From Deltaproteobacteria bacterium (lineage in GTDB: Bacteria > Myxococcota > Kuafuiibacteriia > Kuafuiibacteriales > Kuafuiibacteriaceae): a stretch of DNA of 64,000 bases. Positions 21,980-64,000 of the stretch are shown here, in pieces. Under the pieces are notes generated by a model. It had not been told where the DNA came from. It was given only the letters and a program-made list of their open reading frames with translations, and searched no databases. Where the stretch lies: positions 64,001 through 128,000 of the forward strand of contig JAVJQW010000022.1 of NCBI GenBank assembly GCA_040218735.1. Reading direction: 5' to 3'. The position numbers and the translations under genes were made by a program. The stretch's first letter is position 1; every line of letters begins with the position of its first letter.

Positions 21980-22417
21980 ATGGACGTCCCGGTCGAGCGC
22001 CTGATCGCCCAGTCGAAGATCTTCGCGCGGCTCGACGAGGAGGGCCGGCAGCGCCTCTCCCGCATCGCGACCCAGGAAGACTACGCGGCGGGCGACGTCA
22101 TCCTCCGTGAAGGCGAGCCCGGCGACGCCTTCTACTACGTCCTCGCCGGCGAGGTCGCCGTCGACGCCGCGAGCTTCGACGCGCAGGACAAACGCCTCGC
22201 CACCCTCGGCGCCGGCCACGTGTTCGGCGAGATCGCCTCGCTCACCCGCGAGCCGCGCACCGCGACGATCACCGCGGAGGTCGACACGCGCTGCCTGCGC
22301 TTCGAGATGGTGAGTGTCTTCGCCGTCCTGAAGGACTACCCGGACGCGCTCGCGGATCTGAACCGCCTCGGCCTCGCGCGCACCGAGGATCTATTGAACA
22401 AGATGAACGACGGGTAG
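21980..22417 (+). CDS. Stand-alone cyclic nucleotide-binding domain protein
   Basis: REGEPGDAFYYVLAGEV, VFGEIASLTREPRTATI. Confidence 0.92.
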   Translation: MDVPVERLIAQSKIFARLDEEGRQRLSRIATQEDYAAGDVILREGEPGDAFYYVLAGEVAVDAASFDAQDKRLATLGAGHVFGEIASLTREPRTATITAEVDTRCLRFEMVSVFAVLKDYPDALADLNRLGLARTEDLLNKMNDG

Positions 22418-22529
22418 GCCGGCGGTGGAGCTCGCTGTGTGAGCCATGAACGCTCGCGCCACGTCAGGGGGACGGTTCGCTCGATGGTCTGCACAGGTGC
22501 CTAACTCTAAGGCGATGGCCGGCGTGGCG

Positions 22530-22695
22530 AGCGAGCGCTGGGATGAGAGGCGCAATTGCACCGCGCTCGATCGCGATCTCGATCGCATCGGCGAGCGCCT
22601 CGGGGCCGTATCGAGCTGCCGGTTGAGGTAGCCGGTCTGCGGTCGAATCGGCACGTCGCGTTCGAGCAGCGCCTGCAGAAACGGTTGGGGGAGTG
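22530..22695 (-). pseudogene. Possible frameshifted IS21-family transposase (IstA) C-terminal remnant
   Basis: PFLQALLERDVPIRPQTGYLNRQLD, frameshift, YGPEALADAIEIAIERGA; resembles IstA C-termini as recalled. Confidence 0.4.
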
Positions 22696-22898
22696 CCACG
22701 TCGTTGCGAAAATCGCTGCGGAGGAAGCCAGGCAACTCGCCAGCGGAAGCGGCTGGTCCTAGCGCGTGCCGGATCTCGTCGAAGGTTAAACTTGTCGACG
22801 TTATTGCGGCCGACGAGAACGTTGAGTCCAGAACGCAAATCCAGCCAGCAGTCGCTCATATTCCGGAAGTTTTCAACGACGACGGACGATAGATGCAC
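22695..22898 (-). pseudogene. Truncated, frameshifted OLD-family/AAA_15 ATPase N-terminus
   Basis: RBS gagga plus GTG; VHLSSVVVENFRN..LRSGLNVLVGRNNVDK (Walker A G to D), frameshift, DEIRHALGPAASAGE..DF, then lost. Confidence 0.65.
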
Positions 22899-23205
22899 GT
22901 CGCCTTCCTCTTTAACGATCTCACAGGTGGTACCCGATCGGTCAACGACCAACCCGCGCGATGCCCTCGTCACCAGCGAGCGCAACCGCCAAGACCGATC
23001 GGATCCGGAGGCGGGGAAAGCTGCTCTCGTCCATTCGACCAAGGCTGCACCCTCCACGATGGAGGTGCTTCGCCAGGTCCGCGGCAAATGACCTGACGAC
23101 GTCGCTTGGATTCCTTGGACGGCGAGCTGCGGTGTCGGGCTTTGAAACTCCTTCCGAGCGCAGGCCGAATCCGGTCCGCCTCGACGAACGTGAGGTCAGG
23201 GCTGT

Positions 23206-24873: not shown

Positions 24874-24875
24874 GA

Positions 24876-30800: not shown

Positions 30801-31199
30801 GGCGAACATGGGCAGGAGAAACGACTCGGTCTTCCCGGACCCGGTACCTGTCACCACGACGCAGTGCTTTCCCGATAGCGACCGTTCGAGGAGCTTTTGC
30901 TGGTGGGTGTAGAGTGGGTATCCGTTCTTGAACAGCCCTGCGCGCATGAGACTCACGAACGTCTCCCGAGCCTGCGCGGCTAGTCCCGGAATGTCCGCCG
31001 GCTCCAGTTGCTCAAGCCTTTTGCCGGACCGGTACTCCGGTTGTGGCTCGAGATAAGCCTCCTGGAAGAGGTTCCCAGGTTCGAGGAGCAATTCTCGCCG
31101 CTCGTTTTCAAAGGTCGGCGAGTTCGTTCCGAACGCGCTCGTGATGTAAAGGCGGATGCTCTTTTGGATCGACTCGTACACGCCAATGGGGTCGTTCAT
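24876..31199 (-). CDS. druE: Giant SF2 DEAD/DEAH helicase with DUF1998-like C-terminus; Druantia DruE-like (2107 aa)
   Basis: [79 protein letters not shown]; ATGA overlap with the upstream gene. Symbol inferred from size and context. Confidence 0.85.
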
Positions 31200-34100
31200 C
31201 TCAAGTCTCCGATTTCGTCCAGCCTGCACCCCAGTCGGTTCGCGACGATCTTCACGACCTCTCGGGGGACGGCTTGGTATTCGAGCCACAGGCGTACGTC
31301 GTTGGGAGGCAGGAAGTCCCTGTAGTTCCGGTCGAACGAGCCTACGAATGCGCCGCCGACGGTGCGTGCTCGCAGCCGATCAGCGTCAGTGTTTTGGTCA
31401 GCGATGAGTCTCGCCCGTGCCGGCGGACCTCCGCTGCATGCTACGAGCGCACGTTCGAGAATCAGCGGGAGTTTCATTCCTGCCGGTACCCACAATGAAC
31501 GAGTGACTTGCTGGTAGGAGAGAGGCCAGGGCGCGATGCCTGGGAACATAGTCGCAAAATGGCGGACGCAGGAGTCGTAGGCCATCCACGTTGCCCAGCG
31601 CTCATTGCGGACGTGCCGGTAACGGTAATGCCCAGGGGCCCCGTTGCGCAGCGAGTGCAGGCGATGGCTCCCGGTGTCAGGATCGGTATATCGCAGAAGG
31701 ACCCAGTCGAAGTCCGAGCGTGGAGTCGAGTCACTCCAGTCGGCACATCCTGGCTGAAACCACTCCCGGTCGTGAGCTCTCTTATCGAGTGTTTCGAATC
31801 CGCGTGATGCGAATGCTTGTCGGAGCTCCTCGAGCGACGAGCTACAAGTTGCGATCGCGGTCGGCGGTTGCTTGGTCACGTGGAAGGGGCCTGAGTCGCG
31901 GACGGCACCGCGGAGACGAAATACAGGCAGGCTGGTTTCCGGATCTTGCGACATGTAAAGGTCGGCCCCCGTGGCCACGAGATGCCTCCAATAATCTTGA
32001 CTTGGGGTCCCGCAGACGCCCCACGTCGGATCCTCTTCGACCATGAGTGGCAGGGCGTACAGAGTCGGGCGCACGGCGCCCACAGCTGTCCAGCGTCCTC
32101 GCGTGTCGGACTGGATTTCCAGCATGCCTCGCTGCCTGAGCGCTTCAAGCGTCGCGGTCGTCGTCCGTTCGGATCGTTTCCCAAGGTATCGGCGCAAGAT
32201 GTTCCGTGCCCTGCCGTATGCCATCCGTCCAGAGCCCTGAGATAGCGCATCCAGGAAACGCAGCTCCGGACAGTCGAGCGGCAATTGGGTCAGGTCATTG
32301 CAGACTCTTCCGAGTCGATGCGCAGCCACATTGATTCGGTTCGGCACCGCAGAACCTCGATCGGAGCCCTTCACCAGCATTCCGTGAACTGCTATGCCCC
32401 GTTCTAGCGAGCCGCGTGCCGGCACCAGGCCGATCGCTCCGGCGGTTTGCTCAGCGCCGCCGACCGCCAGCCGCAACTTGGCTTCGCCGAGGATTCTGCC
32501 CTCTGGCGACGTCACGGACAGGGTGAACAGCCGGTCGTCGCTCTCGACCTGGAGTTCGAATGTCCTGCGAGTAGACGGTTGGAGGAAACCTGGCTGTGAA
32601 GATCCACCAGCCGTGTCGGTGGTTTCGGCTATCGTGAGGCCCGGCGTTCGTATCTTGCAGCCAGGCGGAGCATCCACCTCGGCCATTGGCAGGTCGTGGG
32701 CGAGATAAGCGACGCGGCCCGCTCGGCGGATGCGCAGGCCTCCAATCAGGCGGATCGCTCTTGGACGTGAAGCGCTGGGGGGTACACCGGGGAGCTGGTC
32801 GCGCTGGTCAACGGTGAGTGTTGCTGCGTCCTCTAGGAAGAGCAGGCGCCAGCCGAAGGGGAGTCCTTGGCCAGGACACGTCTCGAGTTTGACGCGCTCT
32901 AGGCTCACCACGTGGTCGAAGTTCCGGTTCTCGGGGCTCACCAAGAGGTAGGTCGCACCTTGGGCGGGCATCGCGTCGAGTTCGACTAGGCAGCGATGTC
33001 GGCGGCTGAACTCGAGAACGGTGAGCGGTGATGCCGCCCACGTGAGGTCCTTCCGCCGCTCCGACGGTCGGAACCCATCGTCGAAGAATACGCTGAGCTT
33101 CAACTCCGAGGTCATGAGCTCGCAGTGTGCGCTATTCGACCCATCTGGTTTTGCCACTGCATAGGCGCTGCCATCGTATGCAGCGTGCCACCGCGCAGTA
33201 CCGTACTCCAGTGTGACGCGACCATCGTCCCGGAACGAAGGCATCCGCCATCCCAGTTGCCACGGTGGGCTGTTCCCGTCCGCGAACAGCGCGATACCGA
33301 GTCGAGAGTACGCGCGATGAGTCTTCGTTGGAGCCTCTTCCTCTTCTCCGGACTGCGTGCTGCCGTCCCAGTCCAACAGGATCTGGTTGAGACGTTCGAT
33401 CAATGCGCTTCGGTAATCCTCCTGAGCCGATGCATCTCTAATGCCGCGACTCAATACGTGCTCGTCGTGGATGCGGCCAAGCACCGTCCCTACCCGATCC
33501 AGAGGCATGGGTTCCCCGGGAGTCAGCCGGAGCTTGGAGAAGAGCGTGTGCAGTTTTTCGATGTCACTCGCCCGGATGATGGACTGTGACTTGAGCATGC
33601 CAATCACGGGGCGGCCACCGAGAGTGCGCGCCTTGAAGACACCAAACTTGCCCTTCGTTTCGGCTGTCCACTTCTGAAGGTCACGCCATAGTGCGTTGAC
33701 TCTGTCTAGCTCGTTCATCCCCCAGCTGTTTGGCAGCGCCAGACGGTCTTGTGCGTGCGCGTAGAAGCCACCCTCTCCGTGTTGGTATTCGACCGAGAGC
33801 GCAACCAGCGCCGCGAGGACCGGTAGGTACGGCGGGAAGTTGTCGGAGGCGGCTCCGTAAGAAAGATGACGCGTTGGATGGATGTAGCCCTGGGGCCGGC
33901 TGGCAGCGTGCCGCCTCTGCCGCATTAACCCGAGCGCCAGGTTCGTCAGGGCTCGCCCATCCGAAAGTTTCCAAGGCGGACCGTGCTGTACGGCCTGGAG
34001 GAGACCCTCGAAGCCGCCGAGTTCGGGCGCGATATCGTCGAGCTCGGCGCGCGAGAGTGAAAACGTGACCTCCTCATCCGCCTGAGTGGGGGAGAAGAAG

Positions 34101-34579
34101 TCGCGGAGCAGGGCGGCGTTCCATGCGCCGAACATGTCACCTTGCTCGAAACCGTCACTTTGCGGCGAGCTTGGACTTGCGCGGTTCGTGACGATCGTTC
34201 GAACTCCAACTCCGGGAAACGGATTGCCTCCCTCCGTGATGACTTCTACGGCAATGCATTGCTCCTCTTCCTTGAGTACCAAGAGACTGGGTACGGGCGT
34301 CACGGCCTGTGAGCTGTAGGCGCGTACCAGCGCTTCGTGGTCGACGTCGCCGTCAGCGATCAGCACGATCGCAGTTGCTCCGGTGGATGTTGCCTCGGAG
34401 ATGATCTTGCCGTAGTTCTCCGGCGCCCCAAGGGCCTCGATCAGCAACCCGTTCAAGTCCAGCGCCGACTCAAGTGCGGCTATTGCCGGTTGGTATTCGT
34501 CCTTGCTCGCCGACGAATCGTCGATGCCGCCTAGTGCCTCCGACAGAAGATCGTCCATATCATGGTGGGTGGTGTTCAC
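31196..34579 (-). CDS. druH: Large protein coupled to the helicase; Druantia type III DruH-like
   Basis: 1127 aa directly upstream of the DruE-like gene; [43 protein letters not shown]. Assignment by context and recalled resemblance. Confidence 0.65.
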
Positions 34580-35023
34580 TGGCGGCGTTCGCTACGGTCA
34601 TCATTGGGGGGGGGTGTCGTTCAGTCTCCTCGATGAGGGCTCGCAGTCGATGTCGGTCTGCTTCAGGTGATCTCACTGCGCGGGGCAGCTCGGTAGACTC
34701 ATTGAGGCAGGCTTACCCCCTGTTGATTATGGGAGCAACTCGCATTGCATGCGCGCGGTGAGGCCGAATTCCGCACGCTCATTCCCATCGAGCGGCCAGG
34801 TAGATTCGCTCGCACAAGCCGGTCGGGGACATGCGCCTCTTGATGCTGGCCAGTTCTGTTTTCCGTGTTCGGTTCGTCTTGCATTGCTACACTGAGGCTT
34901 GGCCATCGGCGTCCCAAACCACTGAAAGTAGGCACCGAAGCGCCTTCTAGAGATGCCAACGCATTCTCCGTCCGGTCACGGCCTTGGCCGGTAGCTGGGC
35001 TCGTCAAGCCCGAGGTTCTCCGG

Positions 35024-36247
35024 TCAACCAGCAGCGGCTCGACGATTCTCGTTCTCACCAGACATGCGGATGATATGCTCGTCCAGTGCTGCCAAGAAGT
35101 CGTCTCTGAACCTGAGCGTGCTGCGCTTCGTGCGCTTTCGAAAGCCCTCCGTAGCTCGCAGCGAAAGGAGGCGCCCCGCACCGAGGAAGGTATGGAGGTC
35201 CTTGTAGGCATAGCACTTCGGCCACTCGGTTAGTTCGGGCGCTCGGTAGGCGCGACCTTGGCGACCCCACGCCGCAACTGGCCACCGCGCGCCAGCTGGA
35301 ATCGGCTCGTAGATCTTGGTGATCGGCGCGGCCGGTTTCCCGAGACGTTGGCCAACCCACCGCGCTACGGGGACGCTCACCGCATTCCCGGCGAGCTTCC
35401 ATCGCGGTCCGTTTCTGCGTTTGGAGTCCTCGACAGCCGGACGGGTCCAGTTGCGCGGAAAGCCTTGGAGCCGTTCAGCGTCCACCAGCTCAGGCGTGAC
35501 GATGTCACCATTTGGAAGCCAAACCGCAGGCGGGGACGGGATTCCTACCGTCGAGCCTCCCTTGAGCGTCGGAATCGCGTTGATTCCCCAGCCCAGCCCT
35601 CGGATGCCTTCGGTCCAATAGAAGCCGTAGGCGATGCGCTTGTCTTCGTCGAATGCGCGCTCACCTTCCTCGTCGGCGAACAACACGGTTCGAGGATCTT
35701 CGGTCTGCGAAGCGAGCAGGATGACACGTCGGCGGCGCTGCGGGAGACCAAAGGCACGGGTGTCGACGACGCGGTAGCACCATGTGTACCCCATGTCCGA
35801 AAGCGTGTCGGTCAGGAACCGCATCGCGCGTCCGCGCTCGAGCTGAAGCATGAAAGGGACGTTCTCGATCAGCACCCACTTCGGCCGGGGCTTCATCGTT
35901 CGCATCAAGCGAAACATGTGCGAGACGAGCCCCGACTTCTCGCCCTCGATCCCCTGCGTGCGTCCTGCCTGGCTGAGGTCCTGACACGGGAAACCGCCGG
36001 CGAGCACGTCCACAGGGGGGATCTTGGAAGCCTGCAGATCACGAACGTCGGGGTGCAGCGGAACGTCGAAATGGTGCCTAAGCACCCGGGCCGCAGACTC
36101 GTCGAACTCGCAGAGGAGCTCGGCTCGATGGCCGGCGCGGCGCATCCCGAGCTCGATTCCACCGATCCCTGCGAACAGTCCAGCGACTTTCAATGATTCC
36201 CCTCTACTAGGGAACATGCTGACCTGCGCACTTGTGGCCCCTGGCAT
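35024..36247 (-). CDS. dcm: DNA (cytosine-5)-methyltransferase
   Basis: LFAGIGG, GGFPCQDLS, IENV, PQRRRRV, RLQGFP, AGNAV. Start uncertain (36217-36316). Confidence 0.96.
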   Translation of the reverse strand: MPGATSAQVSMFPSRGESLKVAGLFAGIGGIELGMRRAGHRAELLCEFDESAARVLRHHFDVPLHPDVRDLQASKIPPVDVLAGGFPCQDLSQAGRTQGIEGEKSGLVSHMFRLMRTMKPRPKWVLIENVPFMLQLERGRAMRFLTDTLSDMGYTWCYRVVDTRAFGLPQRRRRVILLASQTEDPRTVLFADEEGERAFDEDKRIAYGFYWTEGIRGLGWGINAIPTLKGGSTVGIPSPPAVWLPNGDIVTPELVDAERLQGFPRNWTRPAVEDSKRRNGPRWKLAGNAVSVPVARWVGQRLGKPAAPITKIYEPIPAGARWPVAAWGRQGRAYRAPELTEWPKCYAYKDLHTFLGAGRLLSLRATEGFRKRTKRSTLRFRDDFLAALDEHIIRMSGENENRRAAAG

Positions 36248-36302
36248 CGGGTCACACCATATCTCGAGGTCGATGCATTTGCATTGGTGGATTCGCCGTC
36301 CC

Positions 36303-36788
36303 TCAAGATATGACAAGGAGACCCGAATCGAGGTTCGAGCGCGGTGTCTTGCGACGATCGAACACGAGTGTCGACACCGTTTCCGCGGCAGAGACCGGGT
36401 CCACGTGGGCCCAGATCCGGATGACGTACCACGCCGCCCCGGCGAGCTTCTCGTTCGTGTCGCGATCGCGGCACCGGTTCGTCTCGATCTTGTCGCGCCA
36501 GAACGCCGCGTTCGCTTTCGGCCACGTCGCGTGCTCGGGGCAGCCGTGCCAGAAGCAGCCGTCCACGTAGATGGCGAGTCTCAGGCGTCGGAACACGATG
36601 TCAGCGCGACGCCGAAGACCGTCGATCACCTTCGCATCGATTCGGTAGCCGCGAACACCCAGCGCATACAGGCACCGGCGCAGCTCAAGCTCGGGGCGCG
36701 TGTCTCGTCGACGCGTCCGCTCCATTCGACGCTTTGCTTCGGGTGAAGAGGGGCGCGGCCCTCGCCGACGCGACCTCGCGTTGCTCAC
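36303..36788 (-). CDS. vsr: Very short patch repair endonuclease
   Basis: RDTRPELELRR, RADIVF, VDGCFWHGCPEH, FWRDKIETNR.RD. Confidence 0.95.
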   Translation of the reverse strand: MSNARSRRRGPRPSSPEAKRRMERTRRRDTRPELELRRCLYALGVRGYRIDAKVIDGLRRRADIVFRRLRLAIYVDGCFWHGCPEHATWPKANAAFWRDKIETNRCRDRDTNEKLAGAAWYVIRIWAHVDPVSAAETVSTLVFDRRKTPRSNLDSGLLVIS

Positions 36789-39094
36789 ACGAACCTCCGC
36801 AGAACGTCAAGCCACCGCGTCGCGATGGCTCGTCGAGCTCCGGCTTCGAACAGAGGACCAAGGTCGAGACCGAACAGCGGACCAAGGTCGAGACCAACGA
36901 GCCACGCCGGGAGGTCGAGTGAGTCGCCGATGGGCACACCGAGAAAGAGCCCGACGCCAAGCGCGGTGTTCACCGATCCAACTCCCCCGTGCACGAAGCC
37001 CGCCTCTCCGTTCACCTGGTACCGTGCGCCGCGAACGCCGGCGCCCTCGAGCGCGAAGCTCGCTGAGGAAGCCCCGGAGACGAGGCGCGCCTCTCCCTCT
37101 ACCCTGTACGCAGCGCGGACGACGCCGGCTCCGTCGCAAACCACCAGTTCGCTGACGTCGAGCTCGCCGATCTCGAGCCCCAACCCGCCGCCCGGTCTCG
37201 AAGGCACCGGCCAGCAGCGATGCTCATGCGCCCAGTCCTCAAGACCATCGATGTCGCGAACGAAGAGTGCGCGAAGATCGGCCGGGGGCCGCGACCACCA
37301 AGGCACGACTCGCTGCGGGCCACCGAAGCCTTCCTCGGTGTAGCTGACGCTTTCCCAGTAGCGTGCTCGCTCGTGCGCCGAGGCTTGATTCGCGAGATGC
37401 ACGATCACGTCATCGAGGAACCGAACGATTGCTTCCTCGCCGATTCCCTCCCGATCCGGACCGGGCTTCAGCGGAAAAGCGCCGAGACTCGGCAAGAGCT
37501 CGCCATGCTTTCGAAGCACTTCCACATCCGCCCCGGGATAAACAGCATAGGCTCCAACCGCGCCGAGGATCGCATCGCGATATGCGTGCATTTTGGTGAT
37601 GTCCGCTGGCGGCACTCGCGTCGTTTCTTCGCCGAGTGCGTCGACCGCCCTCTCGACACGATACTTGGCGTCGAAGTGTAGACGAACAGGCGTGGTCCAT
37701 GCTCCGGCGGGCTCGAGGAGACGAACCTCTAGCGAGCAATCCGGGCGCATTGACCGCGACCAGGTGCCGTCGCCGAGCTCGTACGAGCGTTCGTACACGA
37801 GATCGAGTGCCATCCTTCGACCGAGTCGAGCGACGAGTGCCCGGACCGCGGCGCGTCGGCCCCGGCGAAGCGCAAAGTCGACGCCAGTGGTCGTCGACCG
37901 AACCAAGGACTCGACGTCGAGCTCTTGGCCCGATAGACGCGCAACGATTCCCGCAAGGCGCAGGAACACCCAATACTCGTACAGGGTCGCAACGTCCCTC
38001 TGGCCCGCGCCATAGACGTCCTCGCCGCCTTGCCATTCGAGTTGCGCGCCGACCTGCGACAGCAGGAACGCCTCGAAGAGCTCGCGATAGCCCGGGCGCC
38101 GCTCGAGGACCTGATTGCCGACCGGGAAGCGAACGAGATCCTCCACGTTCCTCAGAACCGGGTGGCGGAGTAGATCGTTGAGAACGGCGTCCACCTCTTC
38201 GGTTTCGCGAAGCCCACGATTGACAGCGGCAGGAATCCTTCTGTCCGTTCCCGTCTTCTCGGCCAGCAGCGCGTCACGAAGACGCCACGTCACCGCGCGC
38301 CACTCCTCGAGCACGAATCGCACGAACCGATTGGGGATGGAGTCGGTCGTCTCTTCGTGACGAAGACGCTCGAGATCGGCTGGCAGCATCAGTGGTTCAC
38401 GTCCTGGCCACGGCTGCTTGGGGCCGGGCTTGGCGATCAGGCGAGCGACGCGGGACGTCGCGCGCAACGGCTGTCCCGGCAGCACGGTCTCGGGGTACTC
38501 GCGCCATTCCACGTGTGGGCGAGCCAGGACTACGGCGAGCGCTCCACGGAGGCGCGTCCCCATCAGCATCGCACGTACGAGTCGGAACTGAGCGTGGAGC
38601 CCATGGGGATCGCCCAAGGTGTCGGGTCGAAGCCGTTGCTCGGTCGCGGCGAACCGACGGAGCACGAGCTCCGTCGCAACGTTCGCGATGTCTTCGAGCA
38701 TGTTCCGATAGTCGTCGAGGTAGCCGAGCTTCTTCGAACGCACCTCGACGGCGACCTCGTCCAAGCGACGTCCGCCGACCACGATGCCGATCGGGAGACG
38801 CCCGGTATGCTCACGAGGACGAAGACGACCCGTTCGGCCGGAGGCATCGTCTGCGGAGATCAGATCGTCGGGTTCGATGCGAACAGGACCCGGCAGGTCG
38901 ACCTCGTAGCGATACTCGACCCCCTCGACCAGCTGAACTGGTTCTAAGGTCGTGGGTGGGTCGGCTCGAAGATCGAGCAGAGGAGGGACTGTTGGGTTGC
39001 GATCTCGGCCGAGCACCGAGATTCGAAGGCTGCCGATTATGGCGGTGTTCGTCGGATCGACGAGCGGCAGCTCGACGTGATCGACGGGAGCCAT
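36785..39094 (-). CDS. McrC-like DUF2357 / PD-(D/E)xK nuclease
   Basis: DSIPNRFVRF, PGYRELF, LYEYWVF, MRPDCSL...FDAKYR...DITKMHAYRDAI. Confidence 0.9.
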   Translation of the reverse strand: MAPVDHVELPLVDPTNTAIIGSLRISVLGRDRNPTVPPLLDLRADPPTTLEPVQLVEGVEYRYEVDLPGPVRIEPDDLISADDASGRTGRLRPREHTGRLPIGIVVGGRRLDEVAVEVRSKKLGYLDDYRNMLEDIANVATELVLRRFAATEQRLRPDTLGDPHGLHAQFRLVRAMLMGTRLRGALAVVLARPHVEWREYPETVLPGQPLRATSRVARLIAKPGPKQPWPGREPLMLPADLERLRHEETTDSIPNRFVRFVLEEWRAVTWRLRDALLAEKTGTDRRIPAAVNRGLRETEEVDAVLNDLLRHPVLRNVEDLVRFPVGNQVLERRPGYRELFEAFLLSQVGAQLEWQGGEDVYGAGQRDVATLYEYWVFLRLAGIVARLSGQELDVESLVRSTTTGVDFALRRGRRAAVRALVARLGRRMALDLVYERSYELGDGTWSRSMRPDCSLEVRLLEPAGAWTTPVRLHFDAKYRVERAVDALGEETTRVPPADITKMHAYRDAILGAVGAYAVYPGADVEVLRKHGELLPSLGAFPLKPGPDREGIGEEAIVRFLDDVIVHLANQASAHERARYWESVSYTEEGFGGPQRVVPWWSRPPADLRALFVRDIDGLEDWAHEHRCWPVPSRPGGGLGLEIGELDVSELVVCDGAGVVRAAYRVEGEARLVSGASSASFALEGAGVRGARYQVNGEAGFVHGGVGSVNTALGVGLFLGVPIGDSLDLPAWLVGLDLGPLFGLDLGPLFEAGARRAIATRWLDVLRRFV
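36847..36894. repeat. 24-bp tandem duplication (1 mismatch), in frame
   Basis: cgaacagaggaccaaggtcgagac / cgaacagcggaccaaggtcgagac; encodes GLDLGPLF twice. Confidence 0.9.
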
Positions 39095-39097
39095 TCG

Positions 39098-40699
39098 TCA
39101 GTCCCAGAACGAGGCGAACTGGTTCGCGTGCAGCGCTCGAATCATGCGTCGGACCTTTCGCGCTGCGCCCGGAAGATCGGGCGCATCGATGGGGGCAGCT
39201 GGGTCGTAGACTGGAGCGTCGAGCTCGGCAACGACGTCGTTGGCGAACGCACCGACGACGCGGAGCACGGGTTCGAGAGCACGGCGAGACCCGTGGAGGC
39301 GTGGGAGGATCTTCTGGAGAACGAATAAGTCGAGTGCTTCGTGGTGGTCGCCACCAGCGATGGCCAGCAAGGCGGAGAGGCGGACTCCCTCGAAGAAGGT
39401 TCGATGCCCGAACTCGACTCCCTGCGAGGCGAGCGCGGCGTGGAGACGCCGAACGGCGGCGACGAACTCCTCCGCGAATGGCGGCGGATGATCGCGATGA
39501 TAGTCGTCGTCGCGCGCCAAGACTGCAAAGCCTCGAGCGAGCTCGCCGGGCCCAGGTTCGACGACTCCCGGTCGAGCGACGCCAGATGCGTCGGAGGGTA
39601 GAGCGTCGGTGCCGACGCGGAACTCGATAGTGTTCGCGCGGTCGAGGACTTTGGGCGACATTGCGAACGTCGTTTCGTCGACGTTCACCGTCCCGACGAT
39701 GAAGAGATTCTCCGGGAATGGAAGGGCGGCTGCCGCCCCCTCCGCACAGTACCAGTCGTCGTCGACAGCTTCGAGATTCGGGACGACTGGCGTCCTCGAC
39801 TCGATACCCGACAGCGCGTCGGCGAAGTACCGCTCGATGTGTGCGAGGTTCATCTCGTCGAGGAGGAGCAGGTACGGTCTATTGGGGTCATGGGCGGCTC
39901 TGATCACGAACTCGAGCGTCGACGGAACCACCCACGGCCGACGCCCATCATCTGCCGGAGTGCGGAGCGCATCCTCATAGCCAAAGAGGTACTCGGGGCC
40001 TGTCCAATCCGGGCGGACAGGTACGAGGAGAAGCTGGTCGTCGCCGAGCCAGCGTCCGAACTGGAGCGCCAATTGCGTCTTCCCCGACCCCGACAGGCCT
40101 GTGAGCACGACGAATCTCTTCGTCGCCAAGCTACACACGAACGCCCTCGTCAGTCGTTCATGACGAGAACCGAAATCGAGTCCGACGTCGCGGACGGCGG
40201 TCGCAAACTCTCTGGCGACGCGCGCGATGTCGACAACGGCTTCGACGTCCGCAGTCTGCTCGCGCTCCTCCTCTTGGGGCGCGACCAGTTCGACCGTCAA
40301 GCCATCGTCCAAACGCTCCTGGACGAGGCGAACCATATGGCTGCCGGGATCCGCGACTATGGTTCCGACGCGCCAACGTTGCTCGACGTCGTCATAGAAG
40401 TTGAAGATCGCGCTGGCGACTTGCCTCGACCACGTTCGGTCATGCCAGTGCTCTTTCGCCGAGCGCACGGCACGGTCATGCGTCCTCTTGTTCCGCACCG
40501 TGAGACTGAGGAGGCCGCCGCTCGCCCCCGTCGCCTGCGAAAACTTGTTCTTGAGCTGCTGGCTAGGATTCGACACAGAGGTCCCGTAGCACTTCACCAT
40601 GCCGTCATCCGCGTCCAGTAGCTCCGTCAGCCACTCTTCCAGCTCCGACGGAATTACCAGCCGATTCGCTGCGTCGACGTCCTCGGGAGACGGATGCAT
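39098..40699 (-). CDS. McrB-like AAA+ GTPase
   Basis: GLSGSGKT, VPVRPDWT, LLLDEMNLA, GTVNVDETT, SPKVLDRAN, QKILPRLHG. Confidence 0.92.
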   Translation of the reverse strand: MHPSPEDVDAANRLVIPSELEEWLTELLDADDGMVKCYGTSVSNPSQQLKNKFSQATGASGGLLSLTVRNKRTHDRAVRSAKEHWHDRTWSRQVASAIFNFYDDVEQRWRVGTIVADPGSHMVRLVQERLDDGLTVELVAPQEEEREQTADVEAVVDIARVAREFATAVRDVGLDFGSRHERLTRAFVCSLATKRFVVLTGLSGSGKTQLALQFGRWLGDDQLLLVPVRPDWTGPEYLFGYEDALRTPADDGRRPWVVPSTLEFVIRAAHDPNRPYLLLLDEMNLAHIERYFADALSGIESRTPVVPNLEAVDDDWYCAEGAAAALPFPENLFIVGTVNVDETTFAMSPKVLDRANTIEFRVGTDALPSDASGVARPGVVEPGPGELARGFAVLARDDDYHRDHPPPFAEEFVAAVRRLHAALASQGVEFGHRTFFEGVRLSALLAIAGGDHHEALDLFVLQKILPRLHGSRRALEPVLRVVGAFANDVVAELDAPVYDPAAPIDAPDLPGAARKVRRMIRALHANQFASFWD

Positions 40700-41108
40700 G
40701 GCGTCGAACGTACGCTGCGCCGCGGGCCGATCCACACTCGCCCCAATCGCCCAATCCTGGGGCCATGGCAATGCGGAATTGAGCAGCCGGTTGGAATGGA
40801 GCGCGGTTTCTCGTTCGGACTCGGGCTGCCACCATCCGCATCGGCTGCGTCTTCGCAACAACGCATTACGTTCGACCAGAGAGCTAGCAACAAGCGGCAG
40901 GGTCTCTGCTCGGAGAACCGCCGCGACGCGGGCGGAGGTCTGCGGTCGCCTTCGAGTCCGACTGCTTCACCGTCTGCGTCTTGCTGTCCTTCCGTCCCGC
41001 GCCGCGCAACTTCGAAACACCATCGCTCTGGCTTCAACCCGCATCCGCAGGCGATCACGGCGTCGCAGTAGGTCGCCTAGTCTGATCGCTCGCCGCGCAC
41101 CCGCGCTC

Positions 41109-57348: not shown

Positions 57349-58980
57349 CTACTGGCAGAGGTTCGTCATCGGGTTGCAGCTCTGACCCGGTGCGCAGTCC
57401 GCGTTCGTCATGCACGGCGTGCCGTTGCTCGGCGGGCCACACGTCGCGGTGCTCGGGTCGCAGACCTCACCCATCGGGCAGTCCGCGTCCGTCATGCACC
57501 CGTTACCGCTCCCCGGGCCGCAGGTCGCCGTCGCGGGGTCACAGACCTGGTTCGGCGGGCAGTCGGCGTTGGTCATGCAGCCGTTGCTGTTGCCCGGCAC
57601 GCACTGGTTCGTCATCGGGTCGCACTGCTGGCCCGGCGCGCAGTCGGCGTTCGAGGTGCAGCCGTTGCTGTTGCCCGGCACACACTGCGCCGTGTTCTGG
57701 TCGCAGATCTCGCCCATCGGGCAGTCCGCGTCCGTCATGCACGCGTTGCCGGTGTTCCCGACGCACTGCGCAGTCATGGGATCACACACCTGGTTCGGCG
57801 GGCAATCGGCGTCCGTCATGCAGCCGTTGCTGTTCCCAGGCACGCACTGGTTCGTCATCGGGTCGCACTGTTGGCCCGGCGCGCAGTCGGCGTTCGAGGT
57901 GCAGCCGTTGTTGTTCCCCGGCACACACTGCGCCGTGTTCGGATCACACACCTCGCCCATCGGGCAGTCCGCGTCCGTCATGCACGCGTTGCTGTTGCCC
58001 GGTACGCACTGGTTCGTCATCGGATCGCAGATCTGATTCGCCGGGCAGTCCGCGTCCGTCATGCAGCCGTTGTTGTTCCCCGGCACGCACTGGTTCGTCA
58101 TTGGGTCACAGACCTGGCTGGGTGCGCAGTCGGCGTTCGAAGTGCAGCCGTTGTTGTTCCCCGGCGTGCACTGCTGCGTGTTCGGGTCGCAGATCTGACC
58201 CATCGGGCAGTCGGCGTTCGAAGTGCAGCCGTTGTTGTTCCCCGGCACGCACTGGTTCGTCATCGGGTTGCACTGCTGGTTCGCCGGGCAGTCGGCGTCG
58301 GTCATGCAGCCGTTCGAAGAGCCCGGCACGCACTGCGCGGTGCTCGGGTCGCAGACCTGGTTGGCGGGGCAGTCGGCGTCGGACATGCAGACGTTGCTGT
58401 TTCCCGGCACACACTGCGCGACGCTGGGATCGCAGACCTGGCTCGGCGGGCAGTCGGCGTTGGTCATGCACGCGTTCGGCGCGGTGCCGCAGGTGCCGTT
58501 GGTGCAGAGCTGCCCCATCAGGCAGTCTGCGTCGCTCGTACACTGCGCCGCGGAGTTGAACATGCCGTAGGTCGAGAAGTGCTCGAGCGCGCCGCGCGCG
58601 ACGCCGCCTTCGATCGTCTGGTTCGCGAGCGGCACGGGTCGCTCCGGATCCGCCCACGCGAGGACGACGTCCGTGCGGCCGCCGGTGCGCAACGCCAGCG
58701 TCGCGTCGTTCGTGAACGTGAGCCCGTCCGGGCCGAAGTCGTACAGGCGCGACACGAGGTCGGCGCGCTCGACGCTGCGAACCTCGATCGTGATCTCGGT
58801 GGTGGTGTCGAGGGCGCCCGCCGGGATGACGAGCTCCGCGATGCCGTCGGCGCTCATCAGCTTGCCGCCGTCGGGGCCGATCGATGCGCCGGTGCGTTCG
58901 ATCAACACGGTTTCTTGAGTGCACGCCGAAACGAGCAGCGGGAGGAGAACAGCGAGTGTAGTTCGGACGTTCATCATCAT
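57349..58980 (-). CDS. Lipoprotein with ZU5-like domain and 15 Cys-rich 27-aa repeats
   Basis: Lipobox LVSAC; IGPDGG..LVIPAGAL..FGPDGLTF..HFSTY; repeats CxxxADCxxxQxCDPxTxQCVPG. Confidence 0.88.
   Translation of the reverse strand: MMMNVRTTLAVLLPLLVSACTQETVLIERTGASIGPDGGKLMSADGIAELVIPAGALDTTTEITIEVRSVERADLVSRLYDFGPDGLTFTNDATLALRTGGRTDVVLAWADPERPVPLANQTIEGGVARGALEHFSTYGMFNSAAQCTSDADCLMGQLCTNGTCGTAPNACMTNADCPPSQVCDPSVAQCVPGNSNVCMSDADCPANQVCDPSTAQCVPGSSNGCMTDADCPANQQCNPMTNQCVPGNNNGCTSNADCPMGQICDPNTQQCTPGNNNGCTSNADCAPSQVCDPMTNQCVPGNNNGCMTDADCPANQICDPMTNQCVPGNSNACMTDADCPMGEVCDPNTAQCVPGNNNGCTSNADCAPGQQCDPMTNQCVPGNSNGCMTDADCPPNQVCDPMTAQCVGNTGNACMTDADCPMGEICDQNTAQCVPGNSNGCTSNADCAPGQQCDPMTNQCVPGNSNGCMTNADCPPNQVCDPATATCGPGSGNGCMTDADCPMGEVCDPSTATCGPPSNGTPCMTNADCAPGQSCNPMTNLCQ
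57352..58545. repeat. 81-bp coding tandem repeat array with 243-bp higher-order period
   Basis: 15 units counted in the translation. Confidence 0.9.
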
Positions 58981-58999
58981 TCCTTTGTCCAGAGTCCGG

Positions 59000-59016
59000 C
59001 CGTGGGTTGCCGGCAC
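59000..59016 (-). promoter_or_regulatory. 17-bp motif, copy 1 (upstream of the Cys-rich lipoprotein)
   Basis: ccgtgggttgccggcac, identical to 61726-61742. Confidence 0.65.
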
Positions 59017-59028
59017 TCGCGGATGTGT

Positions 59029-61131
59029 TCATTCGTCCGCTTCGATTTTCTCCAACGCCGCGCGGAGCGCGGTCTCGTCGTCTACGTCGCGCGCCTCGTG
59101 CGCCGCACGAATCGCGACGACGTGCGCACGGATCCGAATCGATCGCGCCTGCGACGGACCGAGGAGCGGCGCCACGACGCGACGCGCGAGCGCGGCGTCC
59201 TCGTTCACGAGGCGCGCCCCGATCGTCAGCCGCGCGGAGCGCACCGCGAAGCTCGACGTCCCCGCGGCCTCCAGCGTCTGCACCGCGAACGCAAAGCGCC
59301 CCGCCTCCACCGCGAGCTGCGCCGTCAGCACGGCGCGCTCCGGACCGAGCCGTCCGGCACCGAAGCGACGCTGCGACGACGCGAGCAACGCGAGCGCCCC
59401 CTCGAGGTCCCCGGCGGCGCCGAGCATCTCCGCGCGACGCCAGAGCGCCTCCTCCGCGAGGGCCGGCGAGGTCGACGCGTTGGCGTAGGCATCGGCGGCG
59501 GCCGCGAAGTCATTCGCGCGGCGGCGCTTGTCGCCGAGCACGAGCCAGGCCTTCGGCGTGCGCGGGGGGGCGTCGGCGTGCTCAGGAGAGGCGCCATCCG
59601 CGGGGTCCGTGATGGAGTCGCCGGGTTCGTCCTTGCGTGGTCCGTTGTCCGCAGTGGCGTCGTCGCGCGGAGCGCCGTCCGCGGACCGCGTGGCGGGTTC
59701 ATCGCGCTGTTCCCCACGCGAAGCGCCGTCGGCGGAGCGCGCGGTGGGCGCGTCGCGCTGTGCCCCACGCGAAGCGCCGTCCGCGGACCGCGTGGCGGGT
59801 TCATCACGTTCGTCGTCTTGCGGAGCGCCGTCCGCCGCGCCCGCGGACGGTCCGTCACGCGCGCCCTCTGCCGACGTGCGCGCGTCGGCGGGGGAGCCGT
59901 CGGCGCGCGCGCCGGGCGCTCGTGCGGAGGGGTCGTCCGAAGGCCGCGCGGCCGCACCCTCGCGCGCGCTCCGGGCTTCGGCGGACGCGCGCGCGCTGGG
60001 CGCGTCGCGTGCGGCCGCGGCCCCGCCAACCTTGGCGTTCACCGCGGGCGTATCGCGTGCGGGGGGAGCTTCGGTGGAAGCGTCATCCGCAGCGTGCGGA
60101 CTGGAGCCATCGCGCGCGGCCCGCGCTTCGGCCGACGTGCCTGCCGAGCGCACCGCCGACGCTTCGCGCGCCGCCCGAGCTTCGTCCGAAGCGCGCACAT
60201 GGGGAGCGTCGCCTGAAGGGAGCGCGCCGTCCGTGGAGCGCGCACCCGACGCGCCGCGTGAGGCCGGCGCCCCGTCCGCGTCGCGCGTTCGTTCGTGCCG
60301 TGCGGATGCGTTCATCGCAACGTGGTCGCCCACGTCATCGGCCGCCCTCGCGCCGGCCGGGTCGGTGCCCTCGGAGCGCGCCGTCGTCGTTCCGACTTCG
60401 TCACGCGCCGCAGACGCAGCGTCGCTCGCCCCCGCGACGTCGCGCGGGATCCGGATCGACTGCCGCGCCGCCACGCGATGGAGCCGCGCGCCCTCGGTCG
60501 CCTCGACGACGCCCTCCTCCACCGACAGCTCCGTGCGTGCGGCCAACACGCGCACGGTGAAGCGCGTGCCGACGACGCGGATCGTCGTGTGCGGCGTCGA
60601 CACCCAGAACCCACCGTCCCGCGGCGCGACGTCGAAGCGCATCGTCCCGAGCAGCACCCGGACCTCGGAGCGCGCGTCCAGGTCGACGACGAACGTCGCG
60701 CCGTCCGGCGCAGCCAAGGCGGCGTCGGCGAAGACGAGCTTGGTCCCCGCCTCGGCCACGAGCTCGGCCCGCAACGGCAACGCACCCTCCACCGCCGCGC
60801 CGGCGTGGAGAACGCGCCCCTGCACCACCGGCGACGAAGGCCACAGGATCAACGCAGCGCACAGCGCCACCGCGGCCGCGGCGACGGGCCACGCGATCCA
60901 CGTCGGCCGACGCCGCGACACCTTCGCGTCCACGCCGAGCCGCAGCGCGCGCAGCTGATCGGCGTCGGGCTCGCGGGCGTTCTCGCGGAGGATCGTGCGC
61001 GCGTCGTGCAACACCTCGAAGGCGCGCTCACACTCGACACACTTCGCCGCGTGGCGCGTGAACGACGCGCGCTCCTCCTTGGCGAGGAACTCGAAACGGG
61101 CGGCCTCCACGGTGCGCGGGCAACGGCTCAC
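59029..61131 (-). CDS. Anti-sigma factor: HxxxCxxC zinc finger, TM, FecR domain, low-complexity linker, TPR-like end
   Basis: HAAKCVEC; TM; VSTPHTTIRVVGTRFTV..LSVEEGVV; GTGA overlap with the ECF gene. Confidence 0.88.
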   Translation of the reverse strand: MSRCPRTVEAARFEFLAKEERASFTRHAAKCVECERAFEVLHDARTILRENAREPDADQLRALRLGVDAKVSRRRPTWIAWPVAAAAVALCAALILWPSSPVVQGRVLHAGAAVEGALPLRAELVAEAGTKLVFADAALAAPDGATFVVDLDARSEVRVLLGTMRFDVAPRDGGFWVSTPHTTIRVVGTRFTVRVLAARTELSVEEGVVEATEGARLHRVAARQSIRIPRDVAGASDAASAARDEVGTTTARSEGTDPAGARAADDVGDHVAMNASARHERTRDADGAPASRGASGARSTDGALPSGDAPHVRASDEARAAREASAVRSAGTSAEARAARDGSSPHAADDASTEAPPARDTPAVNAKVGGAAAARDAPSARASAEARSAREGAAARPSDDPSARAPGARADGSPADARTSAEGARDGPSAGAADGAPQDDERDEPATRSADGASRGAQRDAPTARSADGASRGEQRDEPATRSADGAPRDDATADNGPRKDEPGDSITDPADGASPEHADAPPRTPKAWLVLGDKRRRANDFAAAADAYANASTSPALAEEALWRRAEMLGAAGDLEGALALLASSQRRFGAGRLGPERAVLTAQLAVEAGRFAFAVQTLEAAGTSSFAVRSARLTIGARLVNEDAALARRVVAPLLGPSQARSIRIRAHVVAIRAAHEARDVDDETALRAALEKIEADE
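59670..59810. repeat. 51-bp coding tandem repeat (about 3 copies)
   Basis: RDEPATRSADGASRGAQ / RDAPTARSADGASRGEQ / RDEPATRSADGAPR. Confidence 0.8.
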
Positions 61132-61676
61132 CGCTGGCCTCCCATCTTCTCGTAGAGCGCCATCAGCTCCTTGCGCGCGTGGTACAGGCGCGTGCGCACC
61201 GTCGCCTCGTTGATGTCGAGCGCCTCCGCGACCTCCTTGCCGCTGAGCCCTTCGACTTCGTAGAGCACGTACACCACGCGCTTCTTCGCGGGGATCTGCA
61301 TCAGGCAACGCCACACGCGCATCAGCTCGGCGCGCTCCGCGACGGTTCGCTCGACGTCCGGGCTCCGATCGACGATCGGCTCCGCCTCCACCGCCTGCTT
61401 CAGGCGACGACGGCGGCGCCAGGAGCGCAGGTGCATCAGCACCGTCCGCGTCGCGATGCCGTAGAGCCAGGTCTCGACCTTCGCGTCGCCCCTGAACCGC
61501 GGCAACGCGCGATGCGCGCCGAGGAAGACGTCCTGTGCGATGTCCTGCACGTCTGCGTCACTCGCCCCCGGGCCGAGCAGGCTCGCGACCATTCGATACA
61601 CGCGTGCACCGTGTTGCCGAACCAGCTGGTCGATCGTCAGCGTCGACCCCCCAAGTTCGGTCACCTCCTGGTGCAT
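61128..61676 (-). CDS. ECF sigma-70 factor
   Basis: DVQDIAQDVF, FRGDAKVETWLYGIA, EGLSGKEVAEALDINEATVRTRLYHARK. Confidence 0.95.
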   Translation of the reverse strand: MHQEVTELGGSTLTIDQLVRQHGARVYRMVASLLGPGASDADVQDIAQDVFLGAHRALPRFRGDAKVETWLYGIATRTVLMHLRSWRRRRRLKQAVEAEPIVDRSPDVERTVAERAELMRVWRCLMQIPAKKRVVYVLYEVEGLSGKEVAEALDINEATVRTRLYHARKELMALYEKMGGQR

Positions 61677-61725
61677 GGGGCTCGTTATCGAGCGGGTCAA
61701 ACCGGACTCGCTACCCTTCGGGTGA

Positions 61726-61742
61726 CCGTGGGTTGCCGGCAC
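61726..61742 (-). promoter_or_regulatory. 17-bp motif, copy 2 (upstream of the ECF sigma gene)
   Basis: ccgtgggttgccggcac, identical to 59000-59016. Confidence 0.65.
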
Positions 61743-61783
61743 CGCCCCTCATGTTCACGGCCGGGGCGATTTTTTTCGACCCG

Positions 61784-62683
61784 TCAGTAGAGCGCGACCT
61801 GGACCCCGACGGTCGCGAAGGGAACGACCGGCCCGCTGACCCACCCCGCACCCGAATACCCAGGCGGGACGGCCACTTGCACGGAGGGGACCCGGAGCTG
61901 CGCGCCGGCCGCCGCGCGGAAGAAGAGGCGGTCACGCCACACCTCGAGCTCGAGCGCGCCGCCGACCCGCACCAGCGCCTCCCAAGCGACGACGCGCTGC
62001 GTCGGCGCGAGATCGGCGAACGTGAGGGGCTCCGCCTCGGCCGTGACCCGCTGCGCCCCGACCCGCACCGCGCCGCGCACCCGCACGACCGTCCACTGCG
62101 CGAACGTCCATGCGCCGTCGAGTCCGAGCGCCAGGGCCTCGGCGTCGCCGGCGATCCCGGTGCTCTCGCGTCGGCAACACACGTGGCCGACCGCGCCGCC
62201 GACGACGGCGAGCGAAGCGCGTCCGATGTCGACGCCGACGCCGAGCTCGAGGCCGAGCTGCGGTTGTCGAGGCCGCCACCACAGCGTCGTGAGCACGTCG
62301 GTCGTCAGGTGCACGCCGAACGTCCTCGGCGCGGGCGGGAGCTCGAAGGGTTCGTCGAGCGCGCGCACCGTCGCCACCGCGCGCGTGGTGAGGAGCGTGG
62401 CGACGCGGAGCGCCTGCTCAGGTTGGCCGGACGGCACGCGGCGCTCGGCGAGCGTGGCGTCGACCGTCGACACCCGGACGAGGAACGTGTCGGCGACGCG
62501 GCGGACGACGACACGCACGCGCGCGAGCCCCGCGCGGGTGAACTCGACGTCACCGATCTCCAGGCTCAACGCACGCGTGAGTGCCTCGGAACGAGAACCG
62601 GCATCGACGGCGATCGAAATTGGGGCGGCGATCGCGGGTGTCGCGAAGCAGAGCGACAGCAGTGTCCCGAAAACGAACCGCAC
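61784..62683 (-). CDS. Secreted hypothetical protein, beta-barrel-like C-terminus
   Basis: Signal peptide ..FATPAIA; amphipathic beta strands; ends in an aromatic residue (VQVALY). Confidence 0.65.
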   Translation of the reverse strand: MRFVFGTLLSLCFATPAIAAPISIAVDAGSRSEALTRALSLEIGDVEFTRAGLARVRVVVRRVADTFLVRVSTVDATLAERRVPSGQPEQALRVATLLTTRAVATVRALDEPFELPPAPRTFGVHLTTDVLTTLWWRPRQPQLGLELGVGVDIGRASLAVVGGAVGHVCCRRESTGIAGDAEALALGLDGAWTFAQWTVVRVRGAVRVGAQRVTAEAEPLTFADLAPTQRVVAWEALVRVGGALELEVWRDRLFFRAAAGAQLRVPSVQVAVPPGYSGAGWVSGPVVPFATVGVQVALY

Positions 62684-62743
62684 CGTGTCGCGCCTTTTAA
62701 CACTCACTCGAAGATCGAGCGCACTCGTCCGAAGAAACGATTG

Positions 62744-63052
62744 ATGCGGATCGCTTCGTCCACTGCCGCGCTCGTCAAGCCGCCCTGCGAGGACTGCGGT
62801 CCTCACGGCGCCAAAGCCAAGGAGGAGCGGGCCCTCGAAGAGATCAAGAACGACAAGGCGATCGAGCGCGTCCGCGAGAAGCGCACCGAGCAGTCGGAGG
62901 GCGTGGCGCCCGCGACCGCGGCGGAGGCCTCGGCGGCCCTCGCCTCCCTGACGCGCGAGGACAGCGTCGAGCCGACGGTCAGCGCGGGCCAGGTCGAGTC
63001 GGCGTACCGTCCGGAGGAGACGCAGGCGGACTCGTTCTCGACCGTCGCCTGA
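62744..63052 (+). CDS. Small hypothetical protein with CxxC
   Basis: 102 aa, PCEDCG, host-like codon usage. Confidence 0.6.
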   Translation: MRIASSTAALVKPPCEDCGPHGAKAKEERALEEIKNDKAIERVREKRTEQSEGVAPATAAEASAALASLTREDSVEPTVSAGQVESAYRPEETQADSFSTVA

Positions 63053-63089
63053 GCAGCAGCGTGTGTCAGGTCGCCGGGAGGGGAGTGCC

Positions 63090-64000
63090 CAGGAACGGCT
63101 GCGCTTTTGGCGTCGGCCGGGGACGCTCTTCCGGTCAGAAGCCGTTCGTCTCGCCGGGTGTGGCCCCTTCACTTCGCTGACTGCCCAGGCGGGCGAGCCG
63201 AACTGATTCCCTCCAGGGCGTCCCCGTCCGCCGCCATCGCTCCGCCTGTCGAGTTTGCCGCTCACCAGCGATCCAATGAATGGAGTGACCCGGGGGAGCT
63301 TCGACCCAACGCACCGCAGATGCGACGCGCTGCCCAGGCGCCCACTCCGCTTTCGACATCGGGCGCGGCGACCTCGGTTCGGCTTGCCGGGCGACCGTCC
63401 GGCGCGGAGATCGCGCTGCGACGCTCGGCAGTACCTGGGTGCGTCGGCGGGGCGGTCCGGCTGTCGGAATCGCCGCGCCCGATGTCTGCGCTCCGCTCGA
63501 CGAGTTGCCTGATTCCAACGCGTGCATCGGCGCGATCTAGCGCCAGTACGAGATCACGATCGAGAAGGCGCCGGGCTCGGGCAACGTGAATAGCGGAGCG
63601 CAGGCGGCGGGCGCGCCGATTCCGAAAGCCGAGCCGCTCCGCCGTGGGCGACAGGCCTTGCCGATCGACGGCGATGGGGTCTCCGCGTCGAACGGACGCC
63701 CACCTCGCCGAACCGAGGTCGGCGTGCCCGCCGCCGGAGCGGAGCGATCACCTGGGCAACGTGTCGAACGAGCACAATCGGTGGAACGAGGCGCCCCGGG
63801 TCACCCACCTCATCGGATGGCCGAGCGAAGGCAACTCGACACGCGGAGCGCAGGCGGCGGGCGGGGACCTCTCCGTAGGGAATCAGTTCGGCTCGCCCGC
63901 CTCGGTCATCAGCGAAGCCGAGGGGCCCCACCCGGCGAGACGAACGGCTTCTGACCGGAGGGGAGGTCCCCGGCCGTCGCCAAACGCGAAGCCGGACCTG
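63090..64000. repeat. Very long imperfect palindrome (arms about 450 nt, 12-nt loop), probably continuing past the window end
   Basis: Perfect paired blocks 63130-63160/63929-63959 (31 bp), 63187-63212/63877-63902 (26 bp), 63370-63383/63707-63720, 63486-63497/63592-63603, 63534-63538/63551-63555. Confidence 0.95.

Follow-up and report, generated by a model that had tools for sequence, protein, structure and literature searches.

A long imperfect palindrome in a GC-rich, myxobacteria-like genome and signs of a second, diverged copy

Palindromes on the kilobase scale are expected to be unstable in bacteria. Eukaryotic Foldback (FB) transposons have two long inverted arms around a short middle, with arms made of tandem subrepeats, and viroids and Obelisk-type RNAs are rod-like RNA replicons of about 1 kb whose pairing is selected in a strand-specific manner. 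MITEs measure a few hundred bp. The prokaryotic MITEs treated in the available portions of two papers are non-autonomous elements with terminal inverted repeats (PMC10969869, PMC3184786). REPINs, according to source excerpts, are units of ~100 nt composed of two short REP sequences, occur in tens to hundreds of copies and are tied to a RAYT gene (PMC3116915, PMC3337134). For E. coli, partial texts describe long or interrupted palindromes as SbcCD substrates, and quasi-palindromes as arising from template switching (PMC3315005, PMC4787754, PMC3855049). The parts of the literature that we consulted contained no description of an element like the one reported here in myxobacteria.

The window, that is, the whole 64,000-nt stretch of DNA that we analysed, ends in a large inverted repeat. 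On balance, we lean towards reading this repeat as a non-coding, imperfect palindrome of ~945 bp that belongs to a small foldback-repeat family represented at least twice in a single large, GC-rich (~70%), myxobacteria-like genome. The evidence is best read as an old, low-copy element that was copied as one unit and has been decaying with no selection to keep its arms paired. When positions 63051–64000 were compared with the window by blastn, the palindrome matched its own reverse complement on the minus strand (63090–64000 against 64000–63090, 74.4% identity over 922 columns, E = 1e-149). It scored 606 in a local self-reverse-complement test; in a control of 70 further 911-nt tiles from the window, one tile that overlaps the palindrome reached 223 and the rest scored 48 or less. 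An earlier note on this DNA had claimed that the sequence pairs with itself from the apex out to the window edge and keeps its register over ~450 nt in five blocks, and both points hold, with paired coordinates adding up to 127089–127090 in five inverted-repeat pairs (I1, I2, I3, I5 and I7). The duplex that the note described is real as self-pairing, but the pairing is ~80% rather than near-perfect. Globally aligned, the left arm and the reverse complement of the right arm share 351 identical columns, with 90 mismatched and 29 gap columns, giving 79.6% identity without gaps and 19 separate indels between the arms.

This divergence also bears on the possibility that the feature is a chimeric foldback created during assembly where a contig or read ends. 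Palindromes are known to cause trouble in assembly, and this one touches the window edge. Artefactual foldbacks are near-identical, however, whereas here 90 mismatches and 29 gap columns separate the arms, and the same architecture is read through by a protein, described below, that was called independently at another locus or in another assembly. An assembly artefact is therefore extremely improbable.

The left arm probably occupies 63073–63544, of which 63090–63544 is paired within the window, and the right arm begins at 63545 and is cut by the window edge at 64000. Between them, the apex (63534–63555) consists of a 5-bp stem (63534–63538 with 63551–63555) and a 12-nt loop centred on 63544/63545, as previously described. 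Position 63090 is not a biological boundary, because it only mirrors the final base of the window (64000). The proposal that the palindrome starts ~40 nt after a small gene for a CxxC protein was thus an edge artefact: similarity between the second copy and the reverse strand of the left flank ends near 63073, ~20 nt past the CxxC stop codon (63050–63052). This similarity is what places 63073–63089 in the left arm, and symmetry would put the end of the right arm near 64017. Together, these positions suggest true ends at ~63073 and ~64017 and a total length of ~945 bp.

Symmetry is unevenly distributed along the arms. The outer part is identical in 136 of 160 columns (85%), compared with 197 of 280 in the inner part (Fisher p = 5e-4); identity is highest, at up to 95%, in 63128–63167, and the centre is the least symmetric part, at 60%–72%. 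The longest perfect runs between the arms form two subterminal blocks. Block 1 is 31 nt long (63130–63160, with a perfect mirror at 63929–63959) and agrees with the earlier report of perfect helices of up to 31 bp, and block 2 is 26 nt long (63187–63212, with a perfect mirror at 63877–63902). Neither block occurs again in the 64-kb window when up to three mismatches are allowed. Each arm also contains nested hairpins. Hairpin A (63108–63236) is closed by stems at 63108–63129 and 63215–63236 and is mirrored by A' at 63853–63981 (pairs I9 and I11); its local folds have z scores of -2.7 to -3.7, and its self-complementarity (A against its reverse complement) exceeds that of shuffled sequences with z = 8.7. 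Hairpin B (63355–63486) has a perfect 17-bp closing stem (63355–63371 with 63470–63486) and a mirror, B', at ~63598–63740 (pairs I12 and I10), with local folds at z = -2.2 to -2.8 and self-complementarity at z = 5.7. We considered whether A and B could be two copies of one unit and rejected this, as they show no homology (z = 0.9 and 0.4). TRF, with a minimum score of 30, found no tandem repeats in 63053–64000.

Compared with the long palindromes of E. coli, as far as the source excerpts describe them, this locus is likewise a closely spaced long inverted repeat with a broken centre, which is expected to make a palindrome tolerable. The E. coli examples in those excerpts are engineered or recent and nearly perfect, whereas this palindrome is natural and old, with arms that have diverged by ~20%, and it is both nested and duplicated. 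Its weak central symmetry agrees with the known tolerance of long palindromes in bacteria (PMC3315005, PMC4787754). It is likely that the broken central symmetry explains why the palindrome is tolerated: judging by established work on long palindromes in E. coli, an asymmetric centre would make hairpin or cruciform formation and nuclease attack unlikely, and the element could persist. A natural palindrome that has survived to 20% arm divergence and been copied within a genome would be a test case for palindrome tolerance.

The palindrome is non-coding and has no transposase inside it, in agreement with the earlier view that it holds no credible CDS or transposase. GC content by codon phase is flat across 63060–63460, and GC3 of the palindrome ORFs ranges from 0.66 to 0.82, compared with 0.92 and 0.88 in neighbouring genes. 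Arm mismatches show no period of three when sorted by coordinate modulo 3 (33/24/33, p = 0.41, and 31/31/28, p = 0.92), and the indel runs between the arms are mostly 1–2 nt. None of the five palindrome ORFs reached the Pfam cut-off, none was present in the protein collection by exact look-up, and a Pfam scan of 24 window proteins returned no transposase-family match. A match of one palindrome ORF to the SIP family was set aside as sub-threshold (17.5 bits against a cut-off of 26.3). An inverted pair of protein-coding paralogues was also rejected, given the flat GC3, the lack of a three-base period, the 1–2-nt indels, and the absence of a Pfam family.

Evidence for a second copy came from a protein search. 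A phmmer search with the frame-C translation of 63644–64000 against 1.84 billion representative proteins gave two matches, P0007 and P0008. We rejected P0007, a 5620-aa repeat protein at 26% identity, since its score was summed over 20 stretches of low-complexity repeats. P0008 is a 246-aa 'hypothetical protein' (E = 6e-10), and a frameshift-tolerant alignment with the window showed that it runs from the inner left arm through the apex and along the whole right arm to ~20 nt past the mirror of the window edge. Residues 1–88 align with the plus strand of the left arm at 73 of 88 identical codons (72 of 80 without the apex) and one frameshift. Residues 86–235 align with the plus strand of the right arm (108 of 140 identical codons, six frameshifts), and residues 86–246 with the reverse strand of the left arm (108 of 155 identical codons, five frameshifts). 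The window has stop codons where P0008 stays open, and P0008 is not encoded in the window. P0008 cannot be regarded as a conserved gene, because one plus six frameshifts are needed to align it and window stops are met along the way. In the protein atlas it had no usable match, and its recognition value of 918 lies within the range of shuffled sequences. Judged from these alignments, P0008 is a spurious ORF that reads through a homologous palindrome whose sequence is ~10% different from the window copy. Annotation artefacts of this kind are typical of open frames in high-GC DNA. For annotators, the point is that the second palindrome copy yielded a spurious call of a 246-aa 'hypothetical protein'.

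Searches for further relatives by other routes added no copy. The BLAST check for other copies that the earlier note had called for was answered in part, with a second copy recovered through the protein search (P0008) but none in the window, or among plasmids or phages. Within the 64-kb window, blastn found no further copy of the palindrome, and the plasmid and phage collections, searched with blastn in a mode for distant similarity, held no match to it. Two peptide patterns drawn from the translated-arm alignment gave 22 pattern matches in 185,579 species-representative genomes, none of which was confirmed. Among proteins of 135–431 aa, the only homologue of P0008 was P0008 itself, so that this route provided no third copy. 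An alignment of a neighbouring 307-aa protein with four homologues gave 174 pattern matches in the species-representative genomes and a single locus, L001. This is a 3403-nt contig with 70% amino-acid identity that ends 3–4 codons before the stop of the CxxC homologue and hence does not extend to the place of the palindrome. The contig breaks where the palindrome begins in the window, which may be chance (coverage 0.83) or an assembly break at a similar repeat.

Comparison of the two copies gives some indication of how they have changed. The second copy is known solely as a translated ORF, so silent changes, including silent compensation, are invisible, and nucleotide changes were inferred by parsimony from amino-acid differences. 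The comparison covers 466 positions present in both arms of both copies, 72% of which are paired in the window; nine ambiguous codons were partly used, and 17 inferred changes that had no covered partner were left out. For 39 changes the partner position was also covered. Of these, 17 disrupt a pair present in the window, 12 turn a window mismatch into a pair, 10 keep the site mismatched, and none is compensatory. Leaving out eight changes in the poorly aligned apex zone gives 12, 11, 8, and 0, respectively. Four of the 17 pair-breaking changes amount to G.U on the plus strand and six to G.U on the minus strand. Changes were enriched at sites that are mismatched in the window (22 of 39 against 28% expected, p = 1.7e-4). 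The mixture of breaks and repairs, together with this enrichment, is what independent decay from a better-paired ancestor would predict. Most of the mismatches between the window arms recur in P0008. The apex itself is not conserved, with 27 nt of differing sequence in the P0008 copy compared with 34 nt in the window.

Change was unequal between the arms. In the left part of P0008, 29 codons match only the left arm of the window and one matches only the right arm; the arms were therefore already divergent when the copies separated. In the right part, codon matches to the same-side arm compared with the opposite arm numbered 15 versus 9 in the inner zone and 10 versus 9 in the outer zone. Window-specific codon changes came to ~1 in the left arm and ~18 in the right arm. 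Either the right arm of the window has changed far more than the left since the copies separated, or conversion occurred. Simple neutral decay would be insufficient to account for such unequal change, and gene conversion or unequal rates would be needed.

The pattern of substitutions also bears on whether the palindrome is the gene for a very long rod-shaped RNA, such as a hairpin RNA or dsRNA precursor, transcribed from one strand and with its pairing selected. As RNA, the plus strand folds into a single rod at -705 kcal/mol (z = -25.2, with none of 20 shuffles as good), and this extreme stability, the register held over 450 nt, the foldback form retained in the homologous copy, and the modestly significant local folds of the nested hairpins (z = -2.2 to -3.7) are all in favour of such a gene. 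The minus strand, however, folds into a single rod equally well, at -708 kcal/mol (z = -20.9). Mismatches between the arms, read on the plus strand, comprise 19 G.U and 22 A.C, and 41 are transitions and 49 transversions, so there is neither a wobble excess nor a strand bias, and nothing indicates selected pairing. The changes inferred against P0008, which come from the protein level and are thus blind to silent changes, bear on the covariation check proposed in the earlier note: none of the 39 is compensatory, and 17 break pairs. A search of 60000–64000 against Rfam 15 (E ≤ 1) found no match in the palindrome, only a weak and unrelated one at 61921–61961, which is in line with the note's statement that the element cannot be assigned to a known class. 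A scan restricted to sigma-70-type promoters and intrinsic terminators found neither in 63053–64000, and neither the apex loop nor the stem next to it is conserved between copies. We consider a gene for a selected rod-shaped RNA quite unlikely, and the earlier description of the duplex as selected, together with the option of a rod-shaped ncRNA, is not supported by these comparisons: the strands fold alike, the apex hairpin differs between copies, and G.U pairs do not exceed A.C. The palindrome resembles viroids and Obelisk-type RNAs in its size of ~1 kb and predicted rod shape, and differs from them in being chromosomal DNA of ~70% GC with no sign of selected pairing. A motif resembling an ECF-type promoter at 63092–63114, found by eye, was discarded for its short spacing and the lack of a mirror in the right arm. 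If the element were transcribed from flanking genes, its outer stem would present a strong hairpin barrier immediately downstream of the CxxC gene.

P0008 lies on a single contig of 11,524,684 nt. The exact CxxC protein of the window (102 of 102 aa) is found on three contigs, the longest of which is also 11,524,684 nt, and P0014, on a contig of that length, is the window's 299-aa neighbour (298 of 299 aa, differing only at the start codon, V versus M). From these matches, the likeliest identity of the second palindrome is a paralogue at another site on the same chromosome, a placement that is based on identical neighbour proteins and contigs of equal size rather than on coordinates. The two would be separate loci because the neighbours are identical while the palindrome ~20 nt away differs by ~10% and seven frameshifts. 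The copied unit would be approximately the palindrome itself, because the CxxC gene, 20 nt away, has no paralogue.

The alternative is a one-off inverted duplication that is decaying neutrally, with P0008 coming from this very locus in a strain or assembly that is nearly identical, or else from part of a larger segmental duplication. Such a history would agree with the neutral-looking mismatch spectrum (41 transitions and 49 transversions, 19 G.U and 22 A.C), the many small indels, the lack of compensatory changes, and the absence of another copy in the window or a relative among the species-representative genomes, and the contig evidence for a single genome is indirect. Neighbours that are identical (102/102 and 298/299 aa) beside a palindrome that differs by ~10% and seven frameshifts are hard to reconcile with one locus, however, and a CxxC gene lacking a paralogue argues against a larger duplication on that side. 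The better-kept outer blocks would also be unexplained by neutral decay alone. We therefore regard a one-off duplication as unlikely. Under the preferred reading of a duplicated foldback repeat, an ancestral inverted duplication was already at ~75%–80% arm identity, as the mismatches common to both copies show, when the palindrome, probably as a unit of roughly its own extent, was copied to a second locus. Both copies have since decayed independently through pair-breaking substitutions and small indels, as the comparison between them shows.

The conservation of the outer part raises the question of a site that acts at the DNA level, namely a cruciform or a large symmetric protein-binding region for replication, partition, or recombination, with the blocks as putative binding sites. 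Both blocks and their mirrors are present in all three arms seen, the two window arms and the right arm of P0008. For block 1, the two window arms share 10 residues in translation, and eight of the 10 are kept in the P0008 right arm; the translation of block 2 is likewise retained there. Perfect mirroring over 31 and 26 bp and an outer part significantly better conserved than the inner part would be expected of such a site. However, cruciform extrusion nucleates at the centre, where symmetry is lowest (60%–72%), which makes a cruciform look unlikely, and the centre also differs between the copies. Among 12 proteins scanned in 49.8–63.0 kb, none is a replication, partition, or recombinase gene product, the right flank being outside the window. 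The better conservation of the outer blocks could equally reflect function or recent arm-to-arm conversion, and we find a DNA-level site very unlikely. If the foldback repeat has a cis-acting site, the two subterminal blocks would be the foremost candidates, and a transposase or recombinase encoded elsewhere might, for instance, bind there.

Like MITEs and REPINs, the palindrome is intergenic, non-coding, and bounded by inverted repeats, and it differs from each in specific ways. Relative to MITEs, as described in the available portions of PMC10969869 and PMC3184786, it is similarly non-coding, intergenic, apparently present in more than one copy, located just downstream of a gene, and better kept at its ends than in its interior. 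Its ends form terminal inverted repeats (85% identity in the outer 160 columns, with perfect runs of 31 and 26 bp), it lacks an internal transposase, and one further copy is indicated by P0008, with no other in the window. It departs from MITEs in being an inverted repeat over its whole length rather than at the ends only, in its size of ~945 bp, which is not small in the MITE sense, and in having only two known copies, with no target-site duplication or parent IS seen. The earlier option of a foldback or MITE-like repeat gains support from the second homologous palindrome. With REP, REPIN, and BIME sequences, as far as excerpts of PMC3116915 and PMC3337134 go, the palindrome has in common that these are extragenic, non-coding inverted repeats that fold into hairpins and persist vertically. 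Its unit is ~10 times longer than the REPINs of those excerpts, with arms of ~470 nt and nested hairpins A and B of ~130 nt each instead of REPs of 20–40 nt, and it is low-copy, neither the palindrome nor its blocks having further matches in the 64-kb window.

The overall plan resembles that of FB transposons, in that two long inverted arms make up nearly the whole palindrome and only a short middle separates them. However, FB elements are eukaryotic, 63053–64000 contains no tandem repeats, A and B are non-homologous, and there is no evidence of transposition here. A bolder proposal is that the palindrome represents a bacterial counterpart of foldback transposons: a wholly palindromic family of ~0.95 kb with nested hairpins, mobilised in trans through the subterminal blocks, possibly via a single-stranded hairpin intermediate, whose transcripts would form dsRNA of ~450 bp next to host genes. 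This proposal is speculative and, in our judgement, unlikely. Two copies are too few for a claim of mobility, and we saw neither ends nor target-site duplications, empty sites, or a parent element. The palindrome is real and unusual but probably does not represent a new functional class; on present evidence we regard it as an oddity of genome architecture, not as a new functional RNA or system. It nonetheless bears on whether foldback-type repeats that exceed REPINs and MITEs in size exist in bacteria.

The window has a GC content of ~70%, and its gene content is, in our reading, typical of myxobacteria. The CxxC protein gene (62744–63052, plus strand, GC3 0.92) stops ~20 nt short of the element and lies outside the repeat. 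Its 102-aa product has one CxxC motif, which is N-terminal, and a tail that is acidic and rich in alanine; it matched no Pfam family. The gene is real and conserved, adjoining the 307-aa gene in L001 and occurring as variants P0009 and P0010 at ~93%–95% identity (seven and five differences in 102 aa). P0009 and P0012 lie on a contig of 25,802 nt, and P0010 and P0016 on one of 47,541 nt, both with neighbouring proteins at 94%–97% identity. No paralogue of it was found. Diverging from it is a probable operon on the minus strand (57349–62707). Its predicted products are a secreted 307-aa protein, an ECF sigma factor, and two larger proteins, one of 761 aa with a FecR domain and one of 555 aa with Dickkopf-type cysteine-rich repeats. 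The secreted 307-aa protein belongs to no known family and has four relatives at 48%–73% identity beyond its own 90% cluster. Retron, hairpin-telomere, and CRISPR-leader interpretations were dropped because the scanned proteins, all from within the window and thus not from the right flank, included no marker genes for them.

Elsewhere in the window, positions 22400–41000 form an island of ~19 kb with a GC content of 60%–65%, compared with 70%–73% around it. Several large genes in this island match models for anti-phage defence, namely a NERD+UvrD-type helicase (23206–24873), DruE2 (24876–31289, 1488 bits), a DruF-like gene (31196–34579), a C5 cytosine methylase (35024–36316, which matches a Type II MTase model best, at 449 bits, and DruM2 less well, at 132 bits), a DUF2357 + PD-(D/E)XK protein (36785–39094), and an AAA protein (39098–40861), all on the minus strand. 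By these model matches, the island looks like a Druantia type II-like system beside an McrBC-like pair.
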